This document shows, piece after piece, positions 3,420 through 54,561 of a DNA stretch of 64,000 nt. The notes beneath the pieces are model-generated. The model had not been told where the DNA came from. It did no database searches and saw nothing but the letters and a program-made list of their open reading frames with translations. The translations under genes were made by a program, and so were the position numbers. The DNA comes from Acidipila sp. GTDB lineage: Bacteria; Acidobacteriota; Terriglobia; Acidiferrales; UBA7541. The stretch is from positions 30,613 to 94,612 of the forward strand of contig JAAFGT010000023.1 in the NCBI GenBank assembly GCA_010365215.1, written 5' to 3'. Position 1 is the first letter of the stretch; each line of letters begins with the position of its first letter.

Positions 3420-3849
3420 TTGCCTGATCGCTCCGCTCCACCCACAACCGGACTTCCTTGTTGGAACGGCCCTTTTCAAAGTCTTGATCGGAAGGGAAGG
3501 GAGCGAAGCGGCTGAGCTCGACGGCGATCACCACGCCGCTGGCATTCTTGCGCATGTTCGCGCTGGCGATGTGATAGCTCTTTACCGGGCCAAATTCGCC
3601 GGTGGGTCCCCAGTCGGAGAGGAAGTCCTGATAGGAATAACGGGCATTGGGCTTCCACAGCCTATACGCCTGTGGCAAATCTCCCGCTGCCACCGTGTTC
3701 AGAAACACCGCGACGGTCTTTTTCTCGGCATGATATCGGAGCGCGTAGGCTACGCCCCCGGAAACCAGAGCGATAAACACAATCAGAGTGATAAGGTAGC
3801 GGCGCAGCTTGGTGTGGGGCTCTTCCGCGCCGCCGTCGAACAGTCCCAA
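3403..3849 (-). CDS. Hypothetical membrane-anchored protein
   Basis: 148-aa ORF with one N-terminal TM helix (YLITLIVFIALVSGGVAYAL) and GC3-rich codons. No family recognised. It overlaps the GT2 3' end by 17 nt. Confidence 0.5.
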   Translation of the reverse strand: MGLFDGGAEEPHTKLRRYLITLIVFIALVSGGVAYALRYHAEKKTVAVFLNTVAAGDLPQAYRLWKPNARYSYQDFLSDWGPTGEFGPVKSYHIASANMRKNASGVVIAVELSRFAPFPSDQDFEKGRSNKEVRLWVERSDQAISFAP

Positions 3850-4018
3850 GGTTTCCTCCGGTGGTGGGCCGCGAGATGCAACTGCGCGGCGGAATCCCGC
3901 GCGTAAATTCCATCGCCGACCTCATCGAACCCTAACAGCAGCAGCGCGAGTTTGCAAATTCGCAGCGCGCAGATGAAACGGAACTCCCCCGCCCGATGGA
4001 CGATAACGACGTAGGCTT

Positions 4019-5164: not shown

Positions 5165-5177
5165 AAAACACCCACGC

Positions 5178-35673: not shown

Positions 35674-35903
35674 TTGCGAAGCCTTTTGGGCCGTAGTCCG
35701 GATATCAGCTGCCGCGCAACTACGCGAATCTTTATCCGGCGATGTTATCCCTCAGAGTTCTTGACTCTCAGAAGTAGCCGTCAGCGCTGACCCTTACTGT
35801 CATACACATTAGCCTTCTCGGCCGGTGCGCGCCATCCCCGTTGACCCGGCTGTGCGGCTTCTATAACCTCCTTGCCGACCGGTGTGCCCGCCCCACGGGA
35901 GGA

Positions 35904-38577: not shown

Positions 38578-40254
38578 ATGCCGCAACGCAACTTGTGTCG
38601 TAGTGCGGAAATTTTGGCGCTGTCCATCTGGGTGCTAACGATAGCGGCCTTGTTCATCGGTCCCGACGCCCAGGCCGGCGAGCCGCGCTATTTCGCGATT
38701 ACCAACGCGCGCATCGTTCCTGTCTCGGGCGCTGTCATCGAGAGCGGCACAGTGGTCATGGCCAAGGGCCTCATCGTCTCGGTAGGGAAAAGCGTTTCCA
38801 TTCCGCCCGAAGCTTTGGTGATCGACGGCAAGGGCATGACCGTATATCCCGGCCTGTTTGACGCGCTCACGGATCTGGGCTTAACGAGCCCCGCGGCTAC
38901 CGCGGGAGGCGCGCACGAGGGCGGCGGCGGCCCTTCTCCCTCGCGCGGTCCGGAAGATCGCCCCAACACCACCACCTGGACCTCTGCCGCCGACGAGTTG
39001 AAAGCCGACGACAAACGCCTCGAGACCTGGCGCAACGGTGGCTTCACCACCGCTGTCACTGCACCCAAAGTGGGTTTATTCCCCGGCCAGGGCGCGGTGA
39101 TCGATCTTGCCGGCGACCGCCCGGGCGATCTGGTCGTCAAGCCCAATGCCTCGCTCCATATTTCTCTCACGCCTACCGGCGGCTTTTTCGGTTTTCCCGG
39201 CTCGTTGATCGGGGTGATAGCCTACGTCAAACAGATTTACTACGACGCCGCGCAGGACGCCCAGGCGCAGCAGATCTACGCAGCCAACCCGCGGGGTCGC
39301 GAGCGTCCCCGTTACGATCGCGCTCTGCATGCCATCGAGGACGCCACCCGCGACGGCCGGCCCGTGCTTCTTCCTGCAGTCACCGTGCCGCAAATTCTCC
39401 GCGCCTTTGATATCGCCAGCCAGCTCGGAATCAAGCCGGTCCTATACGGTGTTACCCAGGGCTACGCCGTAGCCGACCAGATCGCCGCAAAGAAACTTTC
39501 CGTGCTGGTCAACCTGAAATGGCCGGAGAAAGAAAAAGACGCCGATCCTGACGCCGAAGAGTCGCTGCGCACCTTGCGCGTCCGCGATCGCGCCCCCGGT
39601 ACTCCCGCTGCCTTGGAAAAAGCCGGCGTAAAGTTTGCTTTCTATTCCGACGGCCTCACCTCGACCAAGGATATTTTGAAAAACGCCAAGAAAGCCATCG
39701 ACGCCGGACTCCAGCGCGATGCCGCCTTGCGCGCTCTTACGCTCAGCCCCGCGGAAATTTATGGTGTGGCGGACCGCCTGGGCAGCATTGAGACCGGCAA
39801 GATCGCCAATCTGGTGGTTACCGACGGCGACCTGTTCGAAGAGAAAACCAAAATCAAATTCGTATTCGTGGACGGTCGCAAATTCGAAATTCACGAGCCG
39901 GAAAAGCCCAAGGACCCTCCCAAGGGAACCATGACCGGCAAGTGGAAATTTAATTTCAACACTCCAGAAGGCGCGCAGGAAGCCACCGCTGACCTCACGA
40001 TGGATACGGACGGCACGCTTTCCGGCAGTATCGTCCATCAATACGGCACCTCGACGATCTCGAGCGGCTATCTGAGTGCCGATAAATTCAGTTTCAGCTT
40101 CAGCGTGAACATGCCCAGGCCGACTGACGTCATCTTCAGTGGCACGCTCGACGGCAACACCGCCAAGGGCTCGCTCTCCGCCGGCGACTTCAGCACTGAA
40201 ATCACCGGCACACGCCCCGGTGGGCGACAGGTGGAAAATCAGGAGGGTCGCTAA
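38578..40254 (+). CDS. Secreted amidohydrolase-superfamily paralog lacking the HxH metal motif, with an extra C-terminal beta-rich domain
   Basis: Signal peptide present. At the position where homologs have GxxDxHxH it reads YPGLFDALTDLGL. The family tail GKIANLVVTDGDLFE is present. An extra segment of about 120 aa starts at KGTMTGKWKFNF. Confidence 0.8.
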   Translation: MPQRNLCRSAEILALSIWVLTIAALFIGPDAQAGEPRYFAITNARIVPVSGAVIESGTVVMAKGLIVSVGKSVSIPPEALVIDGKGMTVYPGLFDALTDLGLTSPAATAGGAHEGGGGPSPSRGPEDRPNTTTWTSAADELKADDKRLETWRNGGFTTAVTAPKVGLFPGQGAVIDLAGDRPGDLVVKPNASLHISLTPTGGFFGFPGSLIGVIAYVKQIYYDAAQDAQAQQIYAANPRGRERPRYDRALHAIEDATRDGRPVLLPAVTVPQILRAFDIASQLGIKPVLYGVTQGYAVADQIAAKKLSVLVNLKWPEKEKDADPDAEESLRTLRVRDRAPGTPAALEKAGVKFAFYSDGLTSTKDILKNAKKAIDAGLQRDAALRALTLSPAEIYGVADRLGSIETGKIANLVVTDGDLFEEKTKIKFVFVDGRKFEIHEPEKPKDPPKGTMTGKWKFNFNTPEGAQEATADLTMDTDGTLSGSIVHQYGTSTISSGYLSADKFSFSFSVNMPRPTDVIFSGTLDGNTAKGSLSAGDFSTEITGTRPGGRQVENQEGR

Positions 40255-41864
40255 TGCGAATCTCACGCAGTGGCATCGTCGTTCTCTCCTTGGCCACCAT
40301 CGCCGCGGCAGTTCCCGTTGCCGCGCAGGATACCGTCATCATCCAGAACGCCACCGTCCTCACGATAACCAAAGGCACCATAGAGAACGGCTCGGTGCTG
40401 ATTCACAACGGCAAGATTGCGGAAGTGGGCAAAAATCTAAAAGTTCCTTCGGGCGCTACGGTCATCGACGCCTCCGGCATGTTTCTCTCGCCGGGAATCA
40501 TCGATTGCCACTCGCACATCGCCGTCGAAGATCAGGTCAACGAAGGCAGCGTGGCCGTTTCTTCGATGACCGGTGTCGGCGAAGCGCTTGACCCGGAAGA
40601 CCCGGACATCTACCACGACCTAGCCGGCGGCGTGACCGTTGCCAACGTCCTGCACGGCAGCGCCAACCCTATCGGCGGCCTTAACGCCGTCATCAAGCTG
40701 CGCTGGGGCAAGGATGCTCATGGCCTGATGTTTGAAGGCGCGCCCCCAGGCATCAAGTTCGCGCTGGGCGAAAATCCCAAACGCTCGAACTTCACGCCGC
40801 CTCCGGGGATCCCGCCGCGCTATCCGCAGTCACGCATGGGGGTGATCGACGTCATCCGCCAGGCCTTCGTGGACGCGCGCGAGTACAGGAAATCCTGGGA
40901 CGATTACCGCAAGCGCACCGCCGCCGGTGAGAAAAACATCATGCCTCCGCGCCGCGACGTAAAGCTTGATCCGCTGGTCGAAGTGCTGGAGGGAAAGCGT
41001 TACGTGCATTCCCACGCCTACCGCGCCGATGAAATGATTCAACTCATGCGCCTCGCGGAGGAGTTCGGCTTTCGTATTCGCACGTTCCAGCATGTACTGG
41101 AGGGCTACCGCATCGCCCCGGAAATGGCCGCGCACGGCGTGGGCGGCTCCACGTTTTCGGATTGGTGGGGTTATAAGGCCGAGGCCTATGAGGCCATTCC
41201 CTACAACGCTGCGATGATGACGCAGCACGGCGTGATCGTGTCCATCAATTCCGATAGCGCCGAGGAGGCGCGCCATCTGAACCTCGAAGCTGCCAAGACC
41301 ATGAAGTATGGCGGCATGGACGAGACCCAGGCGCTCAGCATGGTCACCATCAATCCCGCCATTCAGCTGGGCATCGACAAGCGCGTCGGCTCTATAGAGC
41401 CCGGCAAGGACGCCGACCTGGTCATCTACAATCATCACCCGCTCAGCGTCTACGCTGTCCCGCAAACGGTCTTCATCGACGGCCATATCTATTTCGACCG
41501 CAAAAAAGATCTTGCCGCGCGTGCCGACGTCGACAAAGAGCGTAAGGCCCTGCTGGAGAAAGAAAAGGCAGCGGAAAAGAAATCTGAAGACAAAAAGTCC
41601 GACGAAAAAAAACCGGACGAGAAGAAACCAGAAGAAAAGAAAGCCATCGAAGCACAAACTCCGGGTGCGCCGACTCCGGACGCCTCTAAGCCCGCTGTGG
41701 CAAAGCCCGACGCACCAAATCCCGACGCCAGTAAACAGGCGCCACCTAAACCCAAGCCAGCGGATTCCAAGAAAGATTACTCTAAGAAGGAAGATCAGAA
41801 ATCCCAGCCACCCGAGCCACCGAAGCCGCCCGTAACCGCCGCGCCCCAGGGGAGCCAGCAATGA
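40254..41864 (+). CDS. Secreted amidohydrolase (metal site intact) with a Lys/Glu/Pro-rich C-terminal tail
   Basis: Has SPGIIDCHSHIAV (HxH), VHSHAYR, NSDSAE and GKDADLVIY. The start ATG overlaps the preceding TAA by 1 nt. Confidence 0.85.
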   Translation: MRISRSGIVVLSLATIAAAVPVAAQDTVIIQNATVLTITKGTIENGSVLIHNGKIAEVGKNLKVPSGATVIDASGMFLSPGIIDCHSHIAVEDQVNEGSVAVSSMTGVGEALDPEDPDIYHDLAGGVTVANVLHGSANPIGGLNAVIKLRWGKDAHGLMFEGAPPGIKFALGENPKRSNFTPPPGIPPRYPQSRMGVIDVIRQAFVDAREYRKSWDDYRKRTAAGEKNIMPPRRDVKLDPLVEVLEGKRYVHSHAYRADEMIQLMRLAEEFGFRIRTFQHVLEGYRIAPEMAAHGVGGSTFSDWWGYKAEAYEAIPYNAAMMTQHGVIVSINSDSAEEARHLNLEAAKTMKYGGMDETQALSMVTINPAIQLGIDKRVGSIEPGKDADLVIYNHHPLSVYAVPQTVFIDGHIYFDRKKDLAARADVDKERKALLEKEKAAEKKSEDKKSDEKKPDEKKPEEKKAIEAQTPGAPTPDASKPAVAKPDAPNPDASKQAPPKPKPADSKKDYSKKEDQKSQPPEPPKPPVTAAPQGSQQ

Positions 41865-43165
41865 AATCAGTAAATAAATTAACCGCGTCCCTGTTGGCCG
41901 GCCTGTTTTTGCTTCTCTTTGCCGGCGCCAGTACCGGGCAGACGCAGCCTTCCGTCTTGGCCATTCGCGGCGCGAAGATCTACACGCTGGCGGGTGCACC
42001 CATTGAAAAGGGCAACATTATTCTGCGCGATGGCCGGATTGCCGCGGTCGGCGCCGATGCCGCCATCCCCGCGGGCGCCGAGATTGTCGATGGCGCGGGC
42101 TTGGAAGTTTATCCCGGCCTGTTCGACTCGAGCAGCCAGCTCGGCCTCACCGAAATCGACTCGGTGGCCGGAACGGTTGACAACGCCGAAATGGGCGATT
42201 TCAATCCCCAGCTGAATGCCGCCACCGCCATACACCCGGCCAGCGAGCATATTCCCGTATCCCGCGAGACAGGCATCACCCACACGGTAGTGATGCCCGG
42301 CGGCGGTATGATTCCCGGCCAAGCCACGGCAATTCATCTTGCCGGTTGGACCCTCGAAGAGATGCTGGTGCGCAAGTCGGTGGGTCTGGTGCTCAACTGG
42401 CCGCAGATTTCCACGCGCTCGTTCGATTTCGCCACTTTTAGTTTTAAAGAAAAGCCCTACACCGACGTCAAACGCGAGCAGGAGAAAAAAGTCCAGGAGC
42501 TCACCGACTTCTTCGACCGCGCGCGCCATTATCAGCAAGCCGTTGAAAAAGGTTCCGCAGCCTCCTACGAGCGCGACCTCAAGCTCGAAGCGCTTATTCC
42601 CGTGCTCAAGGGCGAGCTGCCAGTGATTGTTATTGCCGAGCGCGCGCGTGAGATTAAGGGCGCTTCCGAGTTCTGCGATAAGCAGAAGATCCGCATGATC
42701 CTCGCCGGAGGCACGGAGTCTTACAAGGTCAAGGATCTTCTCAGGCAAAAAAATATTCCTGTGATTTTAGGCCCCACTCTTGCCCTTCCTGCGAATGAGG
42801 ACGATCCCTACGACCGCCAGTTCACTCTGCCCGCCGAGCTCCAGGCTGCGGGGATTCAGTTCGCCATTTCGTCCCAGTCGATATCCTTCATGCGGCGCCT
42901 GCCGGAGTATGCCGGGGTGGCGCAGGCCTATGGCCTGTCCCACGACGATGCGCTCAAAGCTGTGACGCTCAATCCTGCACAGATTTTCGGACTGTCGAAG
43001 GACTTCGGCACCATCGAGACCGGAAAAATTGGCAATCTGATTGTCACCACTGGCGATCCCTTGGAGATTCGCACCGTCGTCCGTTACCTCTTCATCAACG
43101 GCCGCTTGACCTCCACCGACAACAAGCATCGGCAACTGTACGAGAAATATCGCAAGCGCCCATAG
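41861..43165 (+). CDS. Secreted amidohydrolase-superfamily paralog lacking the HxH motif and the strand-8 Asp
   Basis: Has YPGLFDSSSQLGL in place of HxH and FAISSQS in place of the xSD motif. The tail GKIGNLIVTTGDPLE is present. ATGA overlap with the preceding gene. Confidence 0.8.
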   Translation: MKSVNKLTASLLAGLFLLLFAGASTGQTQPSVLAIRGAKIYTLAGAPIEKGNIILRDGRIAAVGADAAIPAGAEIVDGAGLEVYPGLFDSSSQLGLTEIDSVAGTVDNAEMGDFNPQLNAATAIHPASEHIPVSRETGITHTVVMPGGGMIPGQATAIHLAGWTLEEMLVRKSVGLVLNWPQISTRSFDFATFSFKEKPYTDVKREQEKKVQELTDFFDRARHYQQAVEKGSAASYERDLKLEALIPVLKGELPVIVIAERAREIKGASEFCDKQKIRMILAGGTESYKVKDLLRQKNIPVILGPTLALPANEDDPYDRQFTLPAELQAAGIQFAISSQSISFMRRLPEYAGVAQAYGLSHDDALKAVTLNPAQIFGLSKDFGTIETGKIGNLIVTTGDPLEIRTVVRYLFINGRLTSTDNKHRQLYEKYRKRP

Positions 43166-43328
43166 AGCCCGTAGAAAAGGTTTCCGGGCTCGCAACATGG
43201 CGAAGCCCTACTGAGCAAGCACGTTATAAAAGCGGTCCTGCATGTTCCCGCCATGGCGGGTACGGCCGCGTCGTTCGCTATTTTCTTTTCGTGGCGGGCC
43301 GGGCTACACTACCCATCCCATCCAACCT

Positions 43329-44042
43329 ATGAATCGCGAATTCCATAGATGGTACAGCCCGCGCCTGGGCCGCGAAATGGAGCTTCTGGTCTTCGGCCAC
43401 GGCGGTACGCCGCTCCTGGTCTTTCCCACATCGCTTGGCCGCTTTTTCGAGTACGAAGACCGCGGCATGATTTCCGTTCTCGCTGGCAAAATCAGCGAAG
43501 GTAGCTTGCAGGTATATTGCGTGGACAGTGTGGATGGGGAGAGCTGGTACAACCGCGCCATTCACCCGCATCATCGCGTGGTCCGGCATCTAACCTATGA
43601 AAATTACGTGCTGGAGGAAGTGCTGCCGCTGGTCCGCCTGAAGAATTCTTCGAGCGAGCTCGGCGTAACCGGCTGCAGCTTCGGCGGCTACCACGCGATG
43701 AATTTCACTCTGCGCCATCCCGACCGCGTGACGCATTGCGTCACCATGGGCGGCGCGTTCGACATCCATCAGTTCCTCGGCGGCTATTACGACGACGAGT
43801 GCTACTTCAACTGCCCGCCGGACTTTTTGCCCAATATCACTGACCCGTGGTACCTGGATCGTTATCGCGCGCTCCGGCTGGTCCTGGCCACCGGCGACAA
43901 CGACATGTGTCTGGGCGAGAATTACCGTCTCGCAGCGATTCTTGGCGTCAAGCAGATACCACACTGGCTCGACGTGTGGGGTGATGGCACGGGCCACGAT
44001 TGGCCCTGGTGGCAGCGCATGGCCCTAAAATATTTTACTTAA
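43329..44042 (+). CDS. Esterase-family alpha/beta hydrolase (esterase D / enterochelin-esterase-like)
   Basis: Start trimmed to MNREFHRWYSP. Nucleophile elbow GCSFGG, and FPTSLGRFFEYED is typical of this esterase family. Confidence 0.75.
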   Translation: MNREFHRWYSPRLGREMELLVFGHGGTPLLVFPTSLGRFFEYEDRGMISVLAGKISEGSLQVYCVDSVDGESWYNRAIHPHHRVVRHLTYENYVLEEVLPLVRLKNSSSELGVTGCSFGGYHAMNFTLRHPDRVTHCVTMGGAFDIHQFLGGYYDDECYFNCPPDFLPNITDPWYLDRYRALRLVLATGDNDMCLGENYRLAAILGVKQIPHWLDVWGDGTGHDWPWWQRMALKYFT

Positions 44043-44086
44043 ATTATCCGTCGCAGGAAGTTTTCGATTCAATTGGAGAGGTTATC

Positions 44087-45040
44087 GTGAAGCGCATCGG
44101 TATCCTGTTCGGAATGGAAGAGTCCTTTCCACCCGCGGTGGTCGAGCGGATTAACCGCCTCAAGAATCCCGGTGTTTCCGCCGAGCTCTTGTGCGTTGGC
44201 GCCGTGCAAATGAGCCGTCCCAGCGGCTACCGCCTCATACTGGATCGCATCTCGCACGACGTTCCGTTCTACCGCTCGTACCTGAAAAACGAAGTGCTGT
44301 GCGGCACCATCGTCATCAACAATCCATTCTGGTGGAGCGCCGACGACAAATTTTTCAACTATGCCCTGGCTTCCAAAATCGGCGTGGCTGTGCCGCGCAC
44401 CGTGCTGCTTCCGCACAAACAGCATCCTCCTTCCACTTCCGAGCGTTCCATGCGCAACCTGGCATTCCCGCTCGACTGGGATGAGGTGTTCCGCTACATC
44501 GGTTTTCCAGCTTTTCTAAAGCCTTACAGCGGCGGCGGCTGGAAAAACGTCTATAAAGTGCACACGCCCGAGGAGCTCTTCCGCGCCTACGACGATACCG
44601 GCGACCTGTGCATGACCCTTCAGGAGGGCATCGAATTTAGCGAGTATTTCCGCTGTTACGTCATCGGCCAGGACAAGGTGCGCGTGATGCAGTACGACCC
44701 GCGCCGCCCCCATCACGAACGCTACGTTAAGGACGCCGCGCCCGTTGCGCCCGCGCTACTCGACCGCGTGGTGTGCGACGCCCAGAAACTTTGCCGCGCC
44801 CTGGGCTACGATCTGAATACCGTGGAATTTGCCGTGCGCGACGGCATCCCTTACGCCATCGATTTCTTGAACCCCGCGCCGGACGCGGAATATCATTCCG
44901 TGGGGCCGGAGAATTTCGAGTGGGTAGTCGCGGCCGTTGCCGAACTGGCCTTGCGCAGAGCGTTGAGCGACGAGAATCCCGCTCGAGAATATCGCTGGTC
45001 TTCGTTTCTTTCCGGCGTTCCGTTCAAATCCGGTGCTTAA
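44087..45040 (+). CDS. ATP-grasp amidoligase (RimK/GshB-like)
   Basis: GTG 44087 lies 6 nt after GGAGAGG. ATP-grasp elements: GFPAFLKPYSGGGWKNV, YFRCYVIG and NTVEFAV...YAIDFLNPAPD. Confidence 0.8.
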   Translation: MKRIGILFGMEESFPPAVVERINRLKNPGVSAELLCVGAVQMSRPSGYRLILDRISHDVPFYRSYLKNEVLCGTIVINNPFWWSADDKFFNYALASKIGVAVPRTVLLPHKQHPPSTSERSMRNLAFPLDWDEVFRYIGFPAFLKPYSGGGWKNVYKVHTPEELFRAYDDTGDLCMTLQEGIEFSEYFRCYVIGQDKVRVMQYDPRRPHHERYVKDAAPVAPALLDRVVCDAQKLCRALGYDLNTVEFAVRDGIPYAIDFLNPAPDAEYHSVGPENFEWVVAAVAELALRRALSDENPAREYRWSSFLSGVPFKSGA

Positions 45041-45160
45041 CCTTGTTCACGGCAGGCTCTGGTCTTTTTATTGCCACAGGGCGGCGCGACGGTACGGAGC
45101 TGAGCGAAGCTGTTTTGACAAGTGTGTTTGCGCCGCCTCACGCGCGAAGCAGGTGCAGCG

Positions 45161-46300
45161 ATGAAGCCAAGTTTCACCCTGGGCATCGAAGAGGAATATC
45201 AGACCATCGATCCACACACCCGCGAGCTGCGTTCCCACATCCATACTGAAATTTTAGAGCAGGGCAAAATCCTGCTCGAAGAACGCATGAAGCCGGAGAT
45301 GCACCAGTCCGTGGTCGAAGTCGGCACGCGCGTCTGCCACAACATCAAGGAAGCCAAGGAAGACGTAAAGCAGCTTCGCCGCGACGTTATTCGCCTCGCG
45401 CAGCAGAACGGGCTCCGCCTGGCCGCTGCCGGCACCCATCCCACCGCCGACTGGCGTACCCAGGAAATTTATCCGGACGCGCGCTACCACACCATGGTGG
45501 AAGACATGCAGATGGTGGCCCGCGCCAATCTGATCTTCGGTCTTCACGTCCACGTAGGGATCGAAGACCGCGATGTAGCCATCCATCTGATGAATGTGGC
45601 GCGCTATTTCGTTCCCCACATGCTGGCGCTCTCCACCAACTCCCCGTTCTGGTTAGGCATCAACACCGGGCTCAAGTCGTACCGCTGCAAAGTGTTCGAT
45701 AAATTTCCACGCACAAATATCCCCGACTATTTTCCCAGCTGGGGCGAATATGAAAACTTCATCAAGCTGCTGATCAAGACCGGCTGCATCGACAATCCCA
45801 AGCGTATCTGGTGGGACATTCGCCCGCATGCTTACTTCAATACTCTGGAAGTCCGCGTCTGCGACATTCCGCTGCGCGTGGATGAGACCATCGCTCTTGC
45901 CGCGCTCATCCAGGCCACTTTTGCCAAGCTGTACAAACTATTTTCCACCAATCAGACCTTCCGCCTCTACCGCCGCGCGCTGATCATGGAAAATAAGTGG
46001 CGCGCGGCGCGCTACGGCCTTTCCGGCAAGCTCGTCGACTTCGGCAAACAACAGGAAGTCCCCGCCCGCGACCTCATCCTCGAATACCTTGAATTCGTGG
46101 ACGACGTTGTGGACGAGCTCGATTCGCGCGAAGAGATCAACTACATCCATGAAATCCTCAGGATGGGCTCCGGCGCGGACCGCCAGTTGCGCGTCTACGA
46201 AGAAACTGGAGACTTCAACAAAGTTGTCGATTACATTGTGGAGGAGACCCAGGTGGGTCTCTTCGACGCGAAAGAGCAGATTGCGGGAGCGCCCCGTTGA
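45161..46300 (+). CDS. Carboxylate-amine ligase, GCS2/YbdK family
   Basis: The MKPSFTLGIEEEYQ...MHQSVVEVGT...GLHVHVGI pattern is characteristic of glutamate-cysteine ligase family 2. Confidence 0.85.
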   Translation: MKPSFTLGIEEEYQTIDPHTRELRSHIHTEILEQGKILLEERMKPEMHQSVVEVGTRVCHNIKEAKEDVKQLRRDVIRLAQQNGLRLAAAGTHPTADWRTQEIYPDARYHTMVEDMQMVARANLIFGLHVHVGIEDRDVAIHLMNVARYFVPHMLALSTNSPFWLGINTGLKSYRCKVFDKFPRTNIPDYFPSWGEYENFIKLLIKTGCIDNPKRIWWDIRPHAYFNTLEVRVCDIPLRVDETIALAALIQATFAKLYKLFSTNQTFRLYRRALIMENKWRAARYGLSGKLVDFGKQQEVPARDLILEYLEFVDDVVDELDSREEINYIHEILRMGSGADRQLRVYEETGDFNKVVDYIVEETQVGLFDAKEQIAGAPR

Positions 46301-46343
46301 GCGAGCCGCTGACTGTCCCGTCCAGAGAAAAAGTGACCGCAAA

Positions 46344-47360
46344 GTGAACAACAACGGAACACGCGACTTCGACCCCGAGTTTTCGCCCGGCGCCCGCAAC
46401 GCAATCCGCGTTTGCCTGAGAATTCAGCCGCACGAAAAAGTCACTCTCATCACCGATCGCGCCACGCGCGAGATCGCCGATAGCCTTATCCACGAAGTGG
46501 AAGCGGTTGGCGCGCCGTATCGCGCCTGGGTTCTCGAGGAAATTGCATCCCGCCCGCTGCGCAACATGCCCGCGGTGATTCTCGACGACCTCGCCTCGAG
46601 CAACGTCAGCCTTTTCGTGGTGCAGGCCCAGCTCCACGAGCTTGGCTCGCGCATGCAAATGACCGAGGTGGTCAATCGCCACCGTATTCGCCACGCGCAT
46701 ATGGTCAACATCAATCCGCAGATCATGGTGGAAGGCATGCGCGCCGATTTTCTGAAAGTGGATGAAATCTCCACACGTGTCCTCGAGCTGGCCTCCGCTG
46801 CTTCGCATGTTCGAGCGCGCACGCCTGCGGGTACGGAAATCCAAGCCGAGCTCTCACCCAATTTTCGCTGGCTCAAAACCAGCGGTATCATCAGCCCTGA
46901 AAAATGGGGCAATCTTCCGGGCGGCGAAGTCTTCACCACGCCCGCGCTGGTCAATGGAACGTTTGTCGTGGATGGAGTGGTTGGTGATTACCTCTGCGCG
47001 CGCTACGGCACGCTGGCCAACGAACCGCTCACGTTGCGTATCCGCAACAGCCGCCTTACTGAAGTGCACTCCGATAACCGCGAGCTGGAAGATGAGTTCT
47101 GGGCGTACACGCACGCCGACGACAACAGCGACCGCGTCGGCGAATTTGCCATCGGCACGAACATCGACCTCCAGCATGTGATTGGACAGATCCTTCAGGA
47201 CGAAAAATTTCCTGGCGTGCACATTGCCTTTGGCAATCCCTATGGCGAGCACACCGGCGCCGATTGGTATTCTTCCACGCATATCGACGTGGTGGGCACG
47301 GGCTTCAGCATCTGGCTCGACGATCGTCAAATTATGCAGGATGGCAAGTTCCTGATTTAA
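46344..47360 (+). CDS. M29-family (AmpS/aminopeptidase T-like) metallo-aminopeptidase
   Basis: GTG 46344 is in frame. Has GNLPGGEVFTTP, GEFAIGTN, DEKFPGVHIAFG and THIDVV. The track ORF (from 46089) overlaps the previous gene. Confidence 0.8.
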   Translation: MNNNGTRDFDPEFSPGARNAIRVCLRIQPHEKVTLITDRATREIADSLIHEVEAVGAPYRAWVLEEIASRPLRNMPAVILDDLASSNVSLFVVQAQLHELGSRMQMTEVVNRHRIRHAHMVNINPQIMVEGMRADFLKVDEISTRVLELASAASHVRARTPAGTEIQAELSPNFRWLKTSGIISPEKWGNLPGGEVFTTPALVNGTFVVDGVVGDYLCARYGTLANEPLTLRIRNSRLTEVHSDNRELEDEFWAYTHADDNSDRVGEFAIGTNIDLQHVIGQILQDEKFPGVHIAFGNPYGEHTGADWYSSTHIDVVGTGFSIWLDDRQIMQDGKFLI

Positions 47361-47368
47361 TTGCGCCG

Positions 47369-48703
47369 ATGATCCCCGCCCTCCGCCAGGCCTTCAACCG
47401 CGAGTTCACCGCCGCGAAATACAGCGCCTTCCGGGAACACCTCGATCGCGCCTGCGGAACGCACATCACATTTCGAATTTGCGAGACACCCTGTTTTTTC
47501 CCGCGCGAGCTTCTCGATCGGGTTGTTTCCACCGGGCGCGACCTGATTCACCAGCTCGTTGGCAGCCCCGCGTATCGCGCCGCTTCTCAAAACTGCATTC
47601 CCGCGGGTTTCGCGGCGCCGAATGAATCCGCGCATCCGCTTTTCATCCAGGCGGATTTCGGGTTGGTGCGCGGCGCTAGCGGCGACCTGGAGCCGCGCCT
47701 GGTGGAAATTCAGGGATTCGCTTCGCTGTATGCGTTTCAGGCCGCGCTGGCCGGGGCTTATATTGAAAAATATGCGCTCGCTTCCGGGCTGCAGTTTCTG
47801 ATCGATTTCGAAACAGTGGAAGACTATCGCGCCGAGCTGCGCCGCGCTATCGTCGGGTCGCACGATCCAGAAAATGTCGTGCTATTGGAGATCGAGCCGC
47901 AACACCAAAAAACCCTTCCCGATTTTCTGCTTACCGAAAAGATGTTGGGTGTCCGCCCCGTCTGCGTCACTTCATTGCGAAGGGAAGGGAAGCGTCTCTT
48001 CTACCGGCGCGACGGCAAGCTGACGCCTATTGATCGCGTCTACAACCGAGTTATCGCCGACGAACTGATCCGCAAGCGCACCGCCATGCCGTTTCAGTAT
48101 GCCGACGATCTCGATCTCGAATGGGCCGGGCATCCCAACTGGTTTTTCCGCATCAGTAAATTCTCTCTCCCTTTTCTGCAAGGCCCCACCGTGCCGCACA
48201 GCTGGTTTCTAGATCAGCTCTTCGATTCGCTTGGCGGAGAGCGGCAGCGCAGCCTGCCCGCCGCCGTCATTCCGAGCGCAGCGAGGAATCCCTCCTCCCT
48301 TTCTGACGCGAGCGAACACGCGCGGAGCAAGGTCGCGCCGGAGCTGCCCGCGAAATTCGAAGACTGGCCTGCCCGCCTCGACGATTACGTTCTCAAGCCC
48401 TTGTACTCCTTCGCCGGTCTAGGTGTAATCGTTGGCCCAACGCGCGATGAATTGGCCGCGATTCCCGCCGCGCGCCGCCATGAATTTATTCTTCAGCGTC
48501 GCATGCGTTTCGAGCCGGTCATCGATACTCCCCGCGGCCCGACGCAGGCCGAGCTCCGCGTCATGTTCATCTGGCTCGATGAGTTGCGCGCTGGCCCTCT
48601 CATCGTGCGCATGGGACGCGGCAAGATGATGGGCGTGGACCACAATCGCGACCTCGAGTGGGTCGGCGCCTCTGCCGCGCTTTTCCCTTCGGCGAAAAGC
48701 TAG
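47369..48703 (+). CDS. Uncharacterised ATP-grasp-like amidoligase (glutathionylspermidine-synthase / circularly-permuted ATP-grasp-like)
   Basis: ATG 47369 lies 8 nt after the previous stop. HPNWFFRISKFSLPFL and DDYVLKPLYSFAGLGVIVGP resemble the GSP-synthase pre-ATP-grasp and ATP-grasp cores. It carries an in-frame copy of the dispersed repeat. Confidence 0.65.
   Translation: MIPALRQAFNREFTAAKYSAFREHLDRACGTHITFRICETPCFFPRELLDRVVSTGRDLIHQLVGSPAYRAASQNCIPAGFAAPNESAHPLFIQADFGLVRGASGDLEPRLVEIQGFASLYAFQAALAGAYIEKYALASGLQFLIDFETVEDYRAELRRAIVGSHDPENVVLLEIEPQHQKTLPDFLLTEKMLGVRPVCVTSLRREGKRLFYRRDGKLTPIDRVYNRVIADELIRKRTAMPFQYADDLDLEWAGHPNWFFRISKFSLPFLQGPTVPHSWFLDQLFDSLGGERQRSLPAAVIPSAARNPSSLSDASEHARSKVAPELPAKFEDWPARLDDYVLKPLYSFAGLGVIVGPTRDELAAIPAARRHEFILQRRMRFEPVIDTPRGPTQAELRVMFIWLDELRAGPLIVRMGRGKMMGVDHNRDLEWVGASAALFPSAKS
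48263..48294 (+). repeat. Dispersed 32-bp repeat, copy B (inside a CDS, in frame)
   Basis: GCCGTCATTCCGAGCGCAGCGAGGAATCCCTC is identical to copy C. It is translated as AVIPSAARNPS within the 47369-48703 ORF. Confidence 0.7.
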
Positions 48704-48768
48704 CCGATTTTGACCCTCGCCCGGTATCGTTTACTATGGAACTTCATTCCTTCGGAGAATTCGCGATC

Positions 48769-49926
48769 ATGAGCGGTTTTTATCCCAAGCAACCTGGCGT
48801 TCGCACGTCGCGCGGGCTTCGTGGTGTAGTCCCCGCGACTATTTGCGCGCTTAGTCTGGCGCTGATTGCCGGGGGCTGTGGGAAAAAGGAAGCCACGGCA
48901 AGTCACGAAGCACCCGCCGTCGCGGTGCAGACCATGGTCGTCGCACCTGTCGCGATTGCTGATTCCTCCGAGTACCTGGCCACGTTGAAATCCCGCCACT
49001 CCACAGCGTTAAATCCGCAGGTCGAAGGGCAAGTGACCCATGTTTTTGTGAAGTCCGGCGACCGTGTAGCGGCTGGCGAGCCGATTATGCAGATTGATCC
49101 GCTCAAGCAGCAAGCCCAGGTGATGAGCCAGGAAGCCCCGCATGCCGCCCAGAGCTCGAATGTCGACTTGGCCAAAATCCAGGCGGAACGCGCCAAGAAG
49201 CTTTTTGACGCCGGCGTAATCAGCAAGCAGGATTACGACCAGGCGCAGACCAACCTCAACACCGCGCAGCAGCAAAACAGATCGCTCGACGCCCAGGTCC
49301 GCGAACAACAGGTGCAGCTCCGTTATTACCGCGTGACCGCCCCGACCGCCGGCGTGGTTGGCGATGTCCCCGTGCGCGTCGGCGACCGTGTGACCGTTTC
49401 GACCCTGCTGACGACGATCGACCAGGCCGGAAGCCTCGAGCTTTATATCAACGTGCCCGTCGAGCGCTCCAAGGATCTGAACTTAGGACAAACCGTAAAT
49501 GTGCTCGATGGCAATGGAGCCGTCGCCGCGGAAAGCCGCATCGATTTTATTTCTCCCGAAGTGGATAGCAGCTCTCAATCGATTCTGGTGAAAGCGACGG
49601 TAAGAAATAGTTCCGGCGCTTTGCGTAATGCCCAGTTCACGCGCGCGCGGATTATCTGGGGAGTGCGTAAAGGGCCGGCTCTTCCCGTGCTGGCGGTCTC
49701 GCGCATCAACGGGCAGTTCTTCGTTTTCGTGGTGGAAGGCAGCGGCAAGTCTCTGGTGGCGCGCCAGCGCATCTTGCGCCTCGGAGAATTGACCAACAAT
49801 CTCTACCCCGTTCTCGATGGACTGAAATTGGGCGACCGCGTTGTGGTCCAGGGCGCGCAGAACCTGACTGACGGTGACAAGGTTACCGAGCCTGGGCAGG
49901 ACTCCAACGGAAAGCCTTCGTCGTGA
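48769..49926 (+). CDS. RND efflux periplasmic adaptor (membrane fusion protein), lipoprotein
   Basis: Has the lipobox LIAGGCG, a coiled-coil hairpin region (QAERAKKLFDAGVISKQDYDQAQTNL) and beta-barrel domains. Start is ATG 48769, or 48736. Confidence 0.85.
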   Translation: MSGFYPKQPGVRTSRGLRGVVPATICALSLALIAGGCGKKEATASHEAPAVAVQTMVVAPVAIADSSEYLATLKSRHSTALNPQVEGQVTHVFVKSGDRVAAGEPIMQIDPLKQQAQVMSQEAPHAAQSSNVDLAKIQAERAKKLFDAGVISKQDYDQAQTNLNTAQQQNRSLDAQVREQQVQLRYYRVTAPTAGVVGDVPVRVGDRVTVSTLLTTIDQAGSLELYINVPVERSKDLNLGQTVNVLDGNGAVAAESRIDFISPEVDSSSQSILVKATVRNSSGALRNAQFTRARIIWGVRKGPALPVLAVSRINGQFFVFVVEGSGKSLVARQRILRLGELTNNLYPVLDGLKLGDRVVVQGAQNLTDGDKVTEPGQDSNGKPSS

Positions 49927-49971
49927 TTTCCCTGTTCATCTCCCGCGGCTGTCGGCGAACCTGAGGGCAAT

Positions 49972-52900
49972 ATGTTTGTAGATTTTTTTATCCGGCGCCC
50001 AATCTTCGCCACGGTCTGCGCGCTGCTAATCATCCTTGCCGGCGCGATCGCCATTCCCAGCCTGCCCGTTGCGCAATTCCCCACGTTGGCGCCGCCGCAG
50101 GTCATCGTATCCAGTTTTTTCAACGGCGCCAATGCGCAGGCCGTAGAGACCTCGGTCACTACGCCGATCGAACAGCAGATCAACGGCGTCGAAGGAATGA
50201 AGTACATGAACTCGACCAGCGGCAACGATGGGTCGAGCAATATCACGGTAACCTTCGACGTCAACCGGGACATCAACCTCGCCGCTGTCGACGTGCAGAA
50301 CCGCGTGAACGCCGCGCTGGGCAGGATGCCCAACGAAGTCAAGACCACCGGCATCACCATCACCAAATCCGCCAGCGGTTTCGTCTTTGGAGCTGGCTTC
50401 TATGCCGAGCACAGTGAATACGACAGCCTTTTTCTCAGCAATTATATGGACCGCTACGTTCGCGACGCCATCAAGCGCGTGCCCGGTGTCGCCGATGTCA
50501 TTATTTTTGGGGAACGAAAATACTCCATGCGCCTGTGGCTTGATCCTGTGCGCATGGCTGCTCGCGGCCTGACTGCCACCGATGTTTTGGCGGCCTTGCA
50601 GGAACAAAACGTGCAAGTCGCCGCCGGGCAACTTGGTCAACCTCCCTCGCCGACCGGGCAGACGGTGCAGATCAGTGTCCGCGCCGTCGGTCGCCTGGTG
50701 GAACCCGCGCAATTTGAAAATATTATTTTGAAAAGCGGCTCCGACGGCAACCTTGTTCGTGTCCGCGACGTCGGCCGTGCGGAACTGGGCGCAGAGGATT
50801 ACGGATCGGTCCTCCGGTTCGATGGACGCGACGCCGTTGGCCTGGGCGTCACGCAATTGCCGAGCGCAAACGCTTTGGCTGTCGACCGTGCCGCGAAAGC
50901 CGAATTAGCACGCCTCTCCAAGCACTTTCCTCCCGGCATGAAATATGCCGTGGCGTTCGACACCACTACCGTCGTCGACGAATCCATCCGTGATGTTTTG
51001 TACACCCTGCTCGAAGCCATTTTTCTGGTCATCCTGGTAATTTTTATTTTCCTGCAGGACTGGCGAAGCACACTCATTCCTGCCATCACCATTCCGGTAT
51101 CGCTGATCGGCACTTTCGCGTTTGTCAAAATGCTGGGTTTTTCGATAAACACACTCACCCTGTTTGGCCTCACGCTGGCCACCGGTCTGGTAGTGGACGA
51201 CGCAATCGTGGTCGTCGAGAACGTGCAGCGCCACATCACCGAGGGAATTTCCGAACCGCACAATGCCGCTTCCGCGGCCATGAAAGAAGTGGCCAGCGCC
51301 GTCGTGGCCACGTCCCTGGTCCTGGTTGCGGTATTTGTCCCGGTAGCTTTTTTCCCGGGCACTACCGGCATACTCTTTAGGCAGTTCGCGCTCACCATCG
51401 CGTTTTCCGTTTCCATTTCCGCTTTCAACGCGCTTACTCTCACGCCGGCTCTCTCCGCTATCTTCCTGGGTCATACCCACACAAAAGAGGGCCGCCTTTT
51501 CGGTGCCTTCAACCGCGGCTTGAACGCTTTCGGTTCCGGATATCAGCGCACTCTGCGCCGCGTGCTGCAGTACAGGGTGGTGGCCATTCTGTTTTTTGCC
51601 GCGGGCCTGGGATTGACGTGGTGGGTCTACCAGCATGTGCCACGCGGTTTTATTCCTGCGGAAGATGCCGGCTATTTTATTGTCGCCGTGCAGGCGCCCG
51701 AAGGCGCGTCCCTCGAATACACGACGAAGATGTGCGGCCAGGTGGAAGGCACTCTAAGCAAAATCCCCGAAGTGCTGGGTGTGTTTACGATCGCCGGATT
51801 TAGTTTCGGCGGCAGCGCGCCGAATCGCGCCATTATCTTTGTGCCCTTGAAAGGTTTCGCCGACCGCCCAGGTGAAGCGCATTCCACCGACGCGATCATC
51901 AATCGCGTTCGCGAACCGCTATCCTCCATTTCCGGCGCTGTCATTGCTCCCTTTCCTCCTCCAGCCGTCGAGGGCCTTGGACAGTTCGGCGGTTTTCAAT
52001 TCATGCTCGAAGATCTTACCGGCGGCCCGATCCAAAATCTGGCCACAGCCACGCAGAAAATCGTAGCGCAAGGAAACAGCAGCCGTGATTTGAGCGGGTT
52101 GTTCACCAGCTTCAGCGCAAACGACCCGCAATACCTGGTGACCTTCGACCGCGAAAAGGCTAAGGGACTTCAGGTGCCGCTCAGCCAGATCACCGACGCG
52201 CTCCAGGTGTTTATGGGCTCGGTCTACGTTAACGATTTCGATTTCAACAATCGCTCGTACCGCGTCTACGTGCAGGCCGACAAGCAGTTTCGTTCGCAGC
52301 CCCGCGATATCCGCCAGTATTACGCGCGTTCCAATCAGGGCGCGATGATTCCATTGGAAAATCTGGTCAGCGTGCAGCAAATGGCTTCCCCGCAGGTCAT
52401 TACCCATTACAACCTATTTCGCTCCGCGGAAATTGACGGCTCCGCGGCCCCGGGGCACAGCTCCGGCGAAGGTATTGCCGCCATGGACGCGCTGGCCGCG
52501 AAAACTCTGCCCCCGGGGTTTGCCTACGAGTGGACCGGCCTCTCTTTAGAAGAGCTGCGGTCGGGCAGCCAGGCCTTGCTGCTGTTCGGCCTCGGACTGC
52601 TCATTGTCTATCTGACGCTCGCCGCGCAGTACGAAAGCTTCGCGCTGCCATTCATTGTTCTGCTTGCGGTTCCCATGGCCATTCTTGGCGCTATCGGCGC
52701 TCAGGCCCTTCGCGGGCAGGACAACGACGTCTACTGCCAAATCGGCTTGGTTATGCTGATCGGCCTTTCCAGTAAAAATGCCATCTTGATCGTGGAATTT
52801 GCCGAACAGCTTCGCGAAAAGGGAATGTCGATTGTCGACGCCGCCATCGAAGCCGCGCGCATCCGCTTACGGCCGATTCTGATGACCTCGCTGGCTTTCA

Positions 52901-53100
52901 TCCTCGGCGTTTTGCCGCTGGTGCTGGCGCAAGGCGCCGGCCGCATCAGCCGGAGGTCCGTCGGCACCACTGTTTTTGGCGGTATGATCGCTTCGACCTT
53001 CCTCAACCTGGTATTCATCCCCGTGCTCTACGTGTTGGTGAGATCGTTGCAACGTCACGGCAAAAGAGAGGCGCCGTCCGCTGCAGTTCCGGCGCAGTAA
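49972..53100 (+). CDS. RND efflux transporter permease (AcrB/HAE1-like)
   Basis: 1042 aa. Has MFVDFFIRRPIFATV at the start, 12 TM helices with two large periplasmic loops, and VVDDAIVVVEN. Confidence 0.95.
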   Translation: MFVDFFIRRPIFATVCALLIILAGAIAIPSLPVAQFPTLAPPQVIVSSFFNGANAQAVETSVTTPIEQQINGVEGMKYMNSTSGNDGSSNITVTFDVNRDINLAAVDVQNRVNAALGRMPNEVKTTGITITKSASGFVFGAGFYAEHSEYDSLFLSNYMDRYVRDAIKRVPGVADVIIFGERKYSMRLWLDPVRMAARGLTATDVLAALQEQNVQVAAGQLGQPPSPTGQTVQISVRAVGRLVEPAQFENIILKSGSDGNLVRVRDVGRAELGAEDYGSVLRFDGRDAVGLGVTQLPSANALAVDRAAKAELARLSKHFPPGMKYAVAFDTTTVVDESIRDVLYTLLEAIFLVILVIFIFLQDWRSTLIPAITIPVSLIGTFAFVKMLGFSINTLTLFGLTLATGLVVDDAIVVVENVQRHITEGISEPHNAASAAMKEVASAVVATSLVLVAVFVPVAFFPGTTGILFRQFALTIAFSVSISAFNALTLTPALSAIFLGHTHTKEGRLFGAFNRGLNAFGSGYQRTLRRVLQYRVVAILFFAAGLGLTWWVYQHVPRGFIPAEDAGYFIVAVQAPEGASLEYTTKMCGQVEGTLSKIPEVLGVFTIAGFSFGGSAPNRAIIFVPLKGFADRPGEAHSTDAIINRVREPLSSISGAVIAPFPPPAVEGLGQFGGFQFMLEDLTGGPIQNLATATQKIVAQGNSSRDLSGLFTSFSANDPQYLVTFDREKAKGLQVPLSQITDALQVFMGSVYVNDFDFNNRSYRVYVQADKQFRSQPRDIRQYYARSNQGAMIPLENLVSVQQMASPQVITHYNLFRSAEIDGSAAPGHSSGEGIAAMDALAAKTLPPGFAYEWTGLSLEELRSGSQALLLFGLGLLIVYLTLAAQYESFALPFIVLLAVPMAILGAIGAQALRGQDNDVYCQIGLVMLIGLSSKNAILIVEFAEQLREKGMSIVDAAIEAARIRLRPILMTSLAFILGVLPLVLAQGAGRISRRSVGTTVFGGMIASTFLNLVFIPVLYVLVRSLQRHGKREAPSAAVPAQ

Positions 53101-53249
53101 TGCCAGTACGGCCGGAAACGTCTCGCCGCAGTCTGCCCGGCGGCGCGAACCCGGCGAACACCTCGACGAGATAATCGGCCAAGTTGCTTTCCGCACGCAC
53201 GAGAGTCAGACTGGATGGCAAAAGTTCCCGTAGCCCGAGAGGTGATACC

Positions 53250-54428
53250 GTGCGTGATGCCGTGATCGTCAGTTCCGTCCGCACCGCCGTGGGCAAGGCG
53301 TACAAAGGCGCGCTGCGCGCCGTGCGCCCTGACGATCTTGCTGCCATCGCTATCCGCGGAGCCCTGGCTCGCGTTCCCGCGCTCGACTCCAAAGAAATTG
53401 AAGACGTGATCCTGGGCTGCGCCATGCCGGAAGCCGAGCAGGGCATGAACGTCGCGCGCATCGCCTCGCTGCGCGCAGGTCTGCCCGTCGAAGTCTCGGC
53501 CATGACCGTGAATCGCTTCTGCTCTTCAGGCCTCCAGGCCATTGCCATGGCCGCCGACCGCATCATGCTCGGGCAGTCCGAAGTCATAGTCGCGGGTGGC
53601 ACCGAATCCATGAGCATGGTCCCCATGGGCGGGAACAAGATCTCACCGAATCCCTCGCTGATGGATAGTTATCCCGATGCTTATCTGAGCATGGGGCTGA
53701 CCGCGGAAAATCTGGCCCGCAAGCACGCCATTACGCGCGAGCAGGCCGACGCTTTCTCGCTTTCGAGTCACCAGAAAGCGCTGGCCGCCATTGCTGCGGG
53801 GAAATTCCAGGAAGAAGTTGTACCCGTCGAGGCCGCTATCACGGCAATCAGCAACGGCAAGCCAAAAACCTCGTCGCTAGTATTCCAAATCGATGAGGGA
53901 CCTCGCGCGGACACTACGATGGAAGCGCTGGCCAAGCTCAAACCCGCATTTCATGCGCGCGGCGCGGTCACCGCGGGAAACAGTTCGCAGATGAGCGACG
54001 GCGCCGCCGCTGCGGTGGTGATGAGCGCTGATCGCGCCAAGGCGCTTGGCCTCAAACCACTTGCCCGCTTCGTCGCATTCGCTACCGCCGGTTGCCCGCC
54101 CGAAGAGATGGGAATTGGCCCGGTATTTGCGATTCCCAAAGCGCTAAAACTGGCCGGGCTGACTCTGCAGGACATCGATGTGATCGAGCTGAACGAAGCG
54201 TTCGCCGCGCAGGCGCTCACCGTGATCAAGCTCGCGGGTCTCGACCCGGGGAAAGTGAATCCCAACGGCGGAGCTGTGGCGTTAGGGCACCCGCTCGGCT
54301 GTACCGGTGCGAAACTTACCGCCTCGATCCTGCGCGAACTTAAACGCCGCAACGGCCGCTACGGCCTGGTGACCATGTGCGTCGGTGGCGGCATGGGCGC
54401 CGCAGGCATCCTCGAGCTTCTCTCGTAG
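53250..54428 (+). CDS. fadA: Acetyl-CoA C-acyltransferase (thiolase)
   Basis: GTG 53250 follows GAGAGG. Has [11 protein letters not shown] (active Cys), [16 protein letters not shown] and CVGGGMG. Confidence 0.9.
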
Positions 54429-54561
54429 AGATGCTGGATTCATCCGGCCTCGCTTTTCTTTCCACCGCATCATACAATCTGTTTACTTTTCGCTCTCTCC
54501 GGTGCTGCACTTGCAAAGATCACCCGGAGAGGTTGCGAGCGTTACATCGAGAGGCGTAGCG

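Follow-up and report, generated by a model that had tools for sequence, protein, structure and literature searches.

What might a bacterium make, or take apart, with three ATP-dependent ligases and two hydrolases encoded side by side? The question is raised by positions 43,329 to 48,703 of a 64,000-nucleotide stretch of contig JAAFGT010000023.1 from Acidipila sp. (Acidobacteriota), called here the window in its full length. Five open reading frames (ORFs) of the plus strand, g1 to g5, follow one another there with gaps of 44, 120, 43 and 8 nt, exactly as the initial annotation of this DNA had reported. They form one functional unit, probably an operon, and the cassette most likely builds and trims a small peptide-like metabolite. 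Three separate families of ATP-dependent carboxylate-amine ligases are united in it, each with its ATP- and Mg-binding residues kept, and ortholog alignments reveal conserved catalytic residues in all five proteins. The genes are the following:

43329..44042, plus strand: g1, 237 aa, alpha/beta-hydrolase of the esterase D / Fes type (PF00756)
44087..45040, plus strand: g2, 317 aa, divergent classical ATP-grasp ligase with a Ddl/RimK/LysX-like fold; GTG start, homologs open with MKKIGI
45161..46300, plus strand: g3, 379 aa, carboxylate-amine ligase of the YbdK/GCS2 family
46344..47360, plus strand: g4, 338 aa, compact homolog of M29-family metallo-aminopeptidases; GTG start
47369..48703, plus strand: g5, 444 aa, glutathione-synthetase / GspS / YgiC-like (permuted ATP-grasp) fold

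The start codons were set from the N-termini of homologs; g5 starts with MIPALR, the methionine of which is invariant in the 31 sequences of the homolog alignment. The motifs that had been quoted for these genes all occur in the translations (GCSFGG; FLKPYSGGGWKNV; VEFAV..IDFLNPAPD; FTLGIEEEYQ; GLHVHVGI; GEFAIGTN; DEKFPGVHIAFG; HPNWFFRISKFSLPFL; YVLKPLYSFAGLGV) and the five family labels hold, that of "GspS-like" for g5 by virtue of its structure and a weak profile match to YgiC. The GC content is uniform throughout the cassette region (0.57-0.60), so there is no sign of a recent insertion.

The distribution of the cassette was studied starting from g5. When one genome of each GTDB species was scanned with a diverse g5 alignment as the query, at least 591 species representatives were found to encode a g5 relative. 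Among the 80 best loci, the label is that of an Acidobacteriota lineage (Terriglobia, Terriglobales, Bryobacterales, Sulfotelmatobacter, Solibacter, Acidiferrales) in 73; a few others bear the names Acidimicrobiia, Ktedonobacteraceae or Cytophagia, or labels that are perhaps due to mis-binning. The synteny set comprised 82 loci plus the window (83 in total), in which the window proteins were searched by tblastn. All five genes are collinear on one strand in 66 of the 83, mostly from Terriglobia together with some metagenome-assembled genomes labelled Acidimicrobiia, and the median intergenic gaps of the complete loci are 68-176 nt. As all five genes are collinear in so many loci, the arrangement is far beyond chance. 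g1 is likewise the first gene in 66 of the 83 loci. The other 17 consist of cut contigs, losses of g1, losses of both g1 and g2, and loci in which g5 is found alone or with g4 nearby (L076, L078, L082). Across the Terriglobia loci, identity is typically 64-81% for g2, g3 and g4 and 42-61% for g5. The gap between g2 and g3 exceeds 300 nt in 23 of the 66 complete loci, reaching up to 2.4 kb, so that the cassette may be divided into two transcription units in the genomes with a long gap. In Terriglobales loci this gap often contains inserted genes, for example one for a DUF1801 protein in L002 (6961-7434).

A second version of the cassette exists in another phylum. A profile built from distant g5 relatives only retrieved Bacteroidota proteins, namely from Chryseobacterium, Maribacter, Mucilaginibacter, Saprospiraceae and Balneolaceae. 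Six of the nine loci (L084, L085, L087, L088, L089, L091) display the order esterase, a protein of 317 to 361 aa, GCS2 ligase, a glutamine amidotransferase (GATase)-like protein of ~275 aa and g5; the second of these genes is uncalled in L085, where tblastn places the g2 ortholog at 4799-5761. In the four Bacteroidota/Balneolaceae loci that were searched for them, tblastn identified orthologs of g1 (35-42% identity), g2 (51-56%), g3 (54-62%) and g5 (31-38%). The one-strand arrangement, the gaps of 8-120 nt, the collinearity in 66 of the 83 loci and the same order in six Bacteroidota/Balneolaceae loci all support the interpretation of the five genes as a unit. That the flanking genes differ between lineages also argues for the cassette being the conserved unit: the clustering of ORFs across the loci found no conserved neighbor beyond the five genes, and of the genes that a subset of loci share, one encodes a Ser/Thr kinase (in 32 loci) and another a PIG-L protein (in 30).

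The best characterized of the three ligases at the family level is g3. It matches PF04107 at 1.8e-69 (234.8 bits against a threshold of 21), its best model is the generic "carboxylate-amine ligase" NF010039 (557 bits, cut-off 371), it also passes TIGR02050 (307.7 bits, cut-off 176.4) and it matches E. coli YbdK (1r8g) at 3.4e-50. It thus belongs to the YbdK/GCS2 carboxylate-amine ligases by both its Pfam and its NCBIfam equivalog scores, and falls outside gshA, the glutamate-cysteine ligases proper. As many as 110 of its 379 positions are at least 97% conserved in 77 orthologs.

The sequence of g2 is far less telling. No Pfam model reaches its threshold, RimK and Ddl matches being sub-threshold, and the 19.6 bits that g2 obtains on rimK_fam (TIGR00768, cut-off 143.4) place it outside the RimK family. 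Nevertheless, its AlphaFold2 model (predicted local distance difference test, pLDDT, of 79.9) retrieves Ddl at 1e-13 with Foldseek, and Ddl, RimK and LysX together at 1e-13 to 1e-12, with template modelling (TM) scores of 0.66-0.72 for RimK and 0.63-0.72 for RimK or LysX. In an alignment of hidden Markov models with biotin carboxylase, FLK145P, the loop S148-GGGWK153 and TVE247F fall on the ATP/Mg motifs, and K145, G149-W152 (GGGW), E247, D259 and N262 are at least 97% conserved in 73 orthologs. With its three-domain fold, phosphate-binding lysine, Gly-rich loop and acidic/Asn Mg ligands, g2 is a member of the ATP-grasp superfamily. It shares this fold and these ATP/Mg residues with RimK, LysX and Ddl but is only 15-19% identical to them, and the cassette loci have no conserved partner gene resembling S6 or LysW. 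The g2 orthologs show 64-77% identity in the Terriglobia loci and 51-56% in those of Bacteroidota, and several g2 clusters contain hundreds of metagenomic sequences.

The third ligase, g5, was placed by its structure. No Pfam model passes its threshold (the sole match is CP_ATPgrasp_2, with 15.6 bits against 32), and neither NCBIfam nor a phmmer search of the PDB gave a match; by Pfam thresholds it thus lies outside the glutathione synthetase, GspS and CP_ATPgrasp sequence families. Its more than 8000 homologs are all annotated as "hypothetical", and 1259 clusters at 50% identity reach E<=1e-3. Its AlphaFold2 model (pLDDT 80.1) resembles most closely the yeast and human glutathione synthetases (1e-13 to 1e-11), and the other Foldseek matches are 3n6x (an ATP-grasp protein that was deposited under the name of a putative glutathionylspermidine synthase), YgiC, GspS, trypanothione synthetase, homoglutathione synthetase and the fungal ligase Cp1B. 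With a probability of 1.00, E-values of 1e-13 to 1e-7 and TM scores of 0.45-0.61 to 1m0w, 2hgs, 3n6x, 7uk8, 2io7 and 2vpm, g5 has the fold of the glutathione synthetase / GspS / circularly permuted ATP-grasp structural class. The closest of these structural relatives all lengthen the C-terminus of a peptide with an amino acid or a polyamine; YgiC and YjfC, for instance, are peptidyl-polyamine synthetases (PMC12568646). A profile of the g5 family finds YgiC weakly (1.4e-3) over W..HPnW..SK..LP...YVLKPlfSfaGkGV. The residues conserved at 97% or more in 89 sequences are E113-x-Q115, K181, D185, N226-R227, K264, K343-P344, E395-x-R397, R414 and N426. As the acidic E-x-Q motif precedes the KP/Gly-loop motif, this order fits a permuted ATP-grasp active site, which g5 would accordingly be predicted to have.

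Several peculiarities were observed within the g5 family. The protein of the window contains an insertion of ~45 aa (residues 288-332, window 48230-48364; GGERQRSLPAAVIPSAARNPSSLSDASEHARSKVAPELPAKFEDW) that is predicted to be disordered (pLDDT <50) and that the other 30 homologs of the alignment lack or have in a much shorter form. Four homologs with 37-43% identity (P0122, P0125, P0138, P0146) bear an N-terminal extension of 155-185 aa with a hydrophobic, signal-peptide-like start, which is odd for an ATP-dependent ligase; these extensions contain no Pfam domain, and the idea that they are fusions to cassette proteins was rejected. In another homolog, P0131, a sodium:solute symporter (PF00474) is fused to the g5-like domain, and a transporter of the sodium:solute symporter family (SSF) is found a few genes upstream of the cassette in Maribacter (L085, 1-1224). 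Both observations may hint at an imported substrate, unless P0131 is an artifact of gene calling.

Regarding the hydrolases, g1 passes the threshold of the Pfam Esterase family (PF00756; 3.1e-07, 30.9 bits against 22), and its weak sequence matches in the PDB are esterases, an FphF-like "esterase family protein", S-formylglutathione hydrolase and esterase D-like proteins. G115-x-S117-x-G119, D192 and H223 are kept in at least 97% of 69 orthologs, those from Bacteroidota included, and we infer that D192 and H223 are the Asp and His of a Ser-Asp-His triad. g4 passes the threshold of Pfam M29 (PF02073; 8.5e-12, 45 bits against 27), and a profile of 14 of its orthologs finds the aminopeptidase AmpS (1zjc) at 1.2e-05, with its motifs nlPGGEVFTtP, GEFAIG and GiHiAFG aligned to those of AmpS. 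E195, E267, H293, H313 and D315 are at least 97% conserved in 76 orthologs; the first three align to AmpS motifs, and H313-x-D315 would, judging from the motif rather than from the alignment, provide the last two metal ligands. Thus, g4 shares with the M29 aminopeptidases (AmpS, PepS, aminopeptidase T) both the Pfam threshold and the Glu/Glu/His/His/Asp ligand pattern, although it is ~70 residues shorter than AmpS and aligns well with it in the C-terminal half only. A phmmer search of the PDB matched NicX instead, which would make g4 a dioxygenase. Yet this possibility is less likely, since the ortholog profile prefers AmpS to NicX (7cn3, 1.7e-03) and g4 keeps the two peptidase glutamates which, according to the profile alignment, NicX lacks despite its nearly as close E-value.

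It is at the fourth position that the two versions of the cassette differ. In the six Bacteroidota loci tested, tblastn found no M29 homolog; the fourth gene encodes instead a class-I GATase-like protein, above the PF00117 threshold and with an intact C102/H205/E207 triad (ICHSFQ ... GTQFHPE). Since the other four genes are orthologous in the two versions and both active sites are intact, the simplest interpretation is a non-orthologous displacement: position 4 is probably occupied by an amide hydrolase, M29 in one version and GATase-like in the other. The initial annotation had counted an M29 trimming enzyme among the components; the family assignment of g4 stands, but its generality does not, as the GATase-like gene takes its place in Bacteroidota. 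In the simplest reading, the displaced hydrolase removes an N-terminal, plausibly gamma-glutamyl, residue. The surroundings of these loci are varied. A second, Fes-like esterase is found nearby in six of them, divergently transcribed in five. L084 and L090 hold an additional module made up of an esterase, a Peptidase_M17 aminopeptidase and a 400-aa protein, the L084 copy of which is an ATP-grasp enzyme. At a single locus, L084 from Chryseobacterium daecheongense, the cassette adjoins cphA (cyanophycin synthetase), cyanophycinase (S51) and an isoaspartyl peptidase. These additional genes were noted at 258-4152 and 9702-14383 of L084 and at 8249-11754 of L090.

Starting from this gene content and order, the conservation, the folds and the catalytic residues, a pathway may be proposed by analogy. 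g3 would convert a carboxylate, which by analogy with the YbdK/GCS2 family would be the gamma-carboxyl of glutamate, into an acyl-phosphate and form a first, probably gamma-glutamyl, amide bond to an amine. g5 could then activate the C-terminal carboxylate of the g3 product and add an amino acid or a (poly)amine, and g2 would attach one or more further residues. The hydrolase in position 4, M29 in the window and a Cys-His-Glu amidase of the class-I GATase-like type in Bacteroidota, would take off the N-terminal, possibly gamma-glutamyl, residue, and g1 as a Ser-Asp-His esterase might cut an ester or thioester form of the compound; both hydrolases would serve maturation or turnover. In other words, a short, possibly gamma-glutamyl, peptide or peptide-amine conjugate would be assembled stepwise in the cytoplasm, independently of non-ribosomal peptide synthetases, by three acyl-phosphate-forming ligases, and would be trimmed or recycled by hydrolysis. 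We give this scenario roughly even chances of being right. A small-molecule product is favored because there is no conserved small ORF that could serve as a ribosomal precursor or target, and a catabolic route is disfavored because the cassette is devoid of oxidoreductases. The genes are syntenic across at least two phyla, the nucleotide- and metal-binding residues are retained in the ligases and no protein matches the curated model of an experimentally assigned pathway; the proposal of the initial annotation, which would have fallen with the synteny, with these residues or with such a match, therefore stands unrefuted and is supported in part. A bolder version would give Terriglobia and many Bacteroidota a core metabolite of low molecular weight that has not been described before, be it a gamma-glutamyl peptide, a thiol or a peptide-polyamine conjugate; it seems doubtful to us. 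Were it true, the g5 family would constitute a new branch of glutathione-synthetase/GspS-type ligases, devoid of a Pfam model and with a substrate specificity of its own.

Some observations weigh against the proposed peptide assembly. Every one of its steps rests on analogy, and g2 and g5 are too divergent for their specificity to be read from sequence. The scores of g3 stay below the gshA cut-offs (NF010043, 376.7/409; NF010042, 267.7/427; NF010044, 257.1/437; NF010045, 249.8/395; TIGR02048, 82.2/249), and the physiological substrates of the YbdK family are poorly defined. Nor is the cassette indivisible: g1 is missing in six loci (L016, L032, L047, L049, L054, L079), g1 and g2 are both missing in three (L025, L048, L061), and g5 stands alone in some genomes (L076, L082, L083, L086). 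The counts of promoters and terminators over window positions 42800-49200 do not exceed those of shuffled sequence. Finally, the GATase-like protein could supply ammonia to a ligase instead of hydrolyzing an amide, in which case the two genes of position 4 would not be analogous.

Several other scenarios may explain the same genes. If the product were a glutathione-like or glutathionylspermidine-like thiol, g3 would be a gamma-Glu-Cys ligase, g5 a glutathione synthetase or polyamine ligase, g1 an S-acyl-thiol hydrolase and g4 a turnover enzyme. This would suit the position of g3 within GCS2, with a score on one gshA model (376.7 bits) that comes near the 409-bit cut-off, as well as the ranking of the g5 folds, with yeast and human glutathione synthetases at the top followed by GspS and YgiC, and the weak similarity of g1 to S-formylglutathione hydrolase and relatives of esterase D. 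Nevertheless, g3 misses every gshA cut-off among the models that it matches and fits the generic carboxylate-amine ligase equivalog best, glutathione synthesis has no place for a third ligase such as g2 and no cysteine- or thiol-related gene is conserved near the cassette. As to g5, no thiol specificity can be read from it because glutathione synthetase, GspS, 3n6x and the epoxysuccinate ligase Cp1B all lie at much the same distance from it (TM 0.5-0.6, 10-14% identity). We thus hold a thiol of this kind to be improbable. Alternatively, the substrate could be a protein, the terminus of which would be extended by the ATP-grasp enzymes, as RimK does on S6 and LysX on LysW, and the peptidase and the esterase would trim or erase this tag. 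The best TM scores of g2 are indeed those of RimK and LysX/ArgX, including complexes with protein substrates, reversible tagging typically couples ligases to hydrolases, and the 64-81% conservation of g2 to g4 across Terriglobia would suit a conserved macromolecular substrate. Yet g3 and the nearest relatives of g5 work on small molecules. A search of the 83 loci for a precursor, scaffold or carrier ORF of 20-120 aa found no conserved family in or around the cassette, nor does a conserved carrier or target gene accompany it; the largest family of small ORFs spans 18 of the 83 loci, and the largest families sit in the flanks of closely related genomes and resemble out-of-frame or antisense reads of neighboring genes. 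In this search, nothing places the cassette among the pathways of peptides that are made on the ribosome and modified after translation (RiPPs), graspetides or scaffold peptides. There is no proteasome-like partner either, and among the Pfam-annotated neighbors in 11 loci no alpha-E or transglutaminase-like gene was found, which sets the cassette apart from the circularly permuted ATP-grasp system linked to Anbu. As no partner gene was found, protein tagging is rated low.

The ligases could also act on something that is taken up. An imported amine or amino compound would be gamma-glutamylated and extended for assimilation or detoxification, as in pathways of the Puu or Ipu type, or a nitrogen-rich or osmoprotective oligopeptide would be stored, and the hydrolases would release it on demand. 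In the Bacteroidota version, the combination of a GCS2 ligase with a class-I GATase-like hydrolase whose triad is intact is reminiscent of PuuA/PuuD; the cyanophycin genes that adjoin one Chryseobacterium cassette also speak for this scenario, as do the solute symporters, one of which carries a g5-like domain in P0131 and another of which is found near the cassette in L085. However, the catabolism of gamma-glutamylated compounds needs an oxidase or dehydrogenase, and none is conserved in the cassette. The absence of an oxidoreductase, together with the fact that the cyanophycin adjacency and the transporter links are single cases, leads us to consider assimilation or storage unlikely. Lastly, the five genes might be functionally unrelated neighbors, a view that could invoke the lack of direct evidence for co-transcription (the promoter and terminator scan being at shuffle level) and the loci in which single genes are missing. 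It is essentially refuted by synteny, and would be a very remote prospect: order and strand are the same in 66 of the 83 loci and persist in a second phylum, where one gene is swapped and g5 is 31-38% identical, although the flanks change. An anti-phage defense system, finally, was ruled out as none of the five proteins matches a PADLOC model. The assembly and trimming of a small peptide-like compound is thus the interpretation that we retain.

The cassette can be compared with known systems on this basis. As in the synthesis of glutathione, glutathionylspermidine and trypanothione, a GCS-type ligase is accompanied by a ligase of the glutathione-synthetase/GspS fold, and synthetases are paired with hydrolases that would, by analogy, turn over the same compound. 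The bifunctional GspS synthetase-amidase offers a precedent for the synthesis and hydrolysis of one compound by associated activities. The differences lie in g3, which scores under the gshA cut-offs, in g5, which is outside the Pfam models of glutathione synthetase and GspS, and in the third ligase g2; moreover, the hydrolases of the cassette are an M29 or GATase-like protein and an esterase, and no CHAP-type amidase model was matched. The 2009 amidoligase survey by Iyer, Abhiman, Burroughs and Aravind reportedly predicted that amidoligase neighborhoods make peptide-like metabolites or tags. The cassette likewise unites ATP-grasp ligases, ligases resembling GS or GCS, and peptidases, and here too the function is predicted from context alone. 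Genes for circularly permuted ATP-grasp proteins, also linked to Anbu, are said in the same survey to go with alpha-E and transglutaminase partners, which are absent at the cassette. In searches of the open-access literature no account of the cluster turned up, the survey of Iyer et al. 2009 lying outside that comparison. In the gene cluster of the dipeptide osmolyte N-acetylglutaminylglutamine amide (NAGGN), an ATP-grasp/GNAT ligase, an amidotransferase and an M42 peptidase are found. Like the cassette, it unites a ligase for small peptides with an amidotransferase-type protein and a dedicated aminopeptidase, but the families differ, the cassette having no GNAT, AsnO or M42 protein.

Few groups of soil bacteria are as abundant as Acidobacteriota, and little is known of their small-molecule physiology. 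In this context, the cassette is a widely conserved orphan with a large family of domain-less ligases and an informative gene swap. Another cluster with several ligases would not surprise a specialist; what is notable is its breadth in a dominant soil phylum and its unusual conservation. Its product could reveal a new cellular peptide that serves as redox buffer, osmolyte or nitrogen store or is a polyamine conjugate, and once identified it would assign roles to thousands of "hypothetical proteins". The exchange of M29 for GATase in position 4 offers a concrete way to find out which bond is hydrolyzed, and the cultured Chryseobacterium and Maribacter carriers open the question of the product to experiment.

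The remaining observations concern the surroundings of the cassette in the window, in the whole of which no Rfam family matches at gathering thresholds. A resistance-nodulation-division (RND) efflux pair, consisting of an HlyD-type membrane-fusion protein and an AcrB-type transporter (48658-53100), lies directly downstream of g5, as the initial annotation had pointed out. It is no part of the conserved unit, and its membership in the cassette was rejected: homologs of the pair are absent from the other loci, save for one unrelated 27% match upstream in L048. Upstream, three tandem genes of the amidohydrolase family (PF01979; 38575-43165) encode proteins with signal-peptide-like N-termini; they were also rejected as members, since among the other loci just L001 and L004, the two closest, have them upstream of the cassette. 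The product of the middle gene (40254-41864) terminates in a long low-complexity tail rich in Lys, Glu and Pro. Further out, a fadB-like gene, a thiolase and an acyl-CoA dehydrogenase (35841-38369 and 53184-56361) make up a beta-oxidation cluster that the amidohydrolases, the cassette and the RND pump appear to break up. L001 has its thiolase 1.3 kb downstream of the cassette, with just three short genes and no pump in between.

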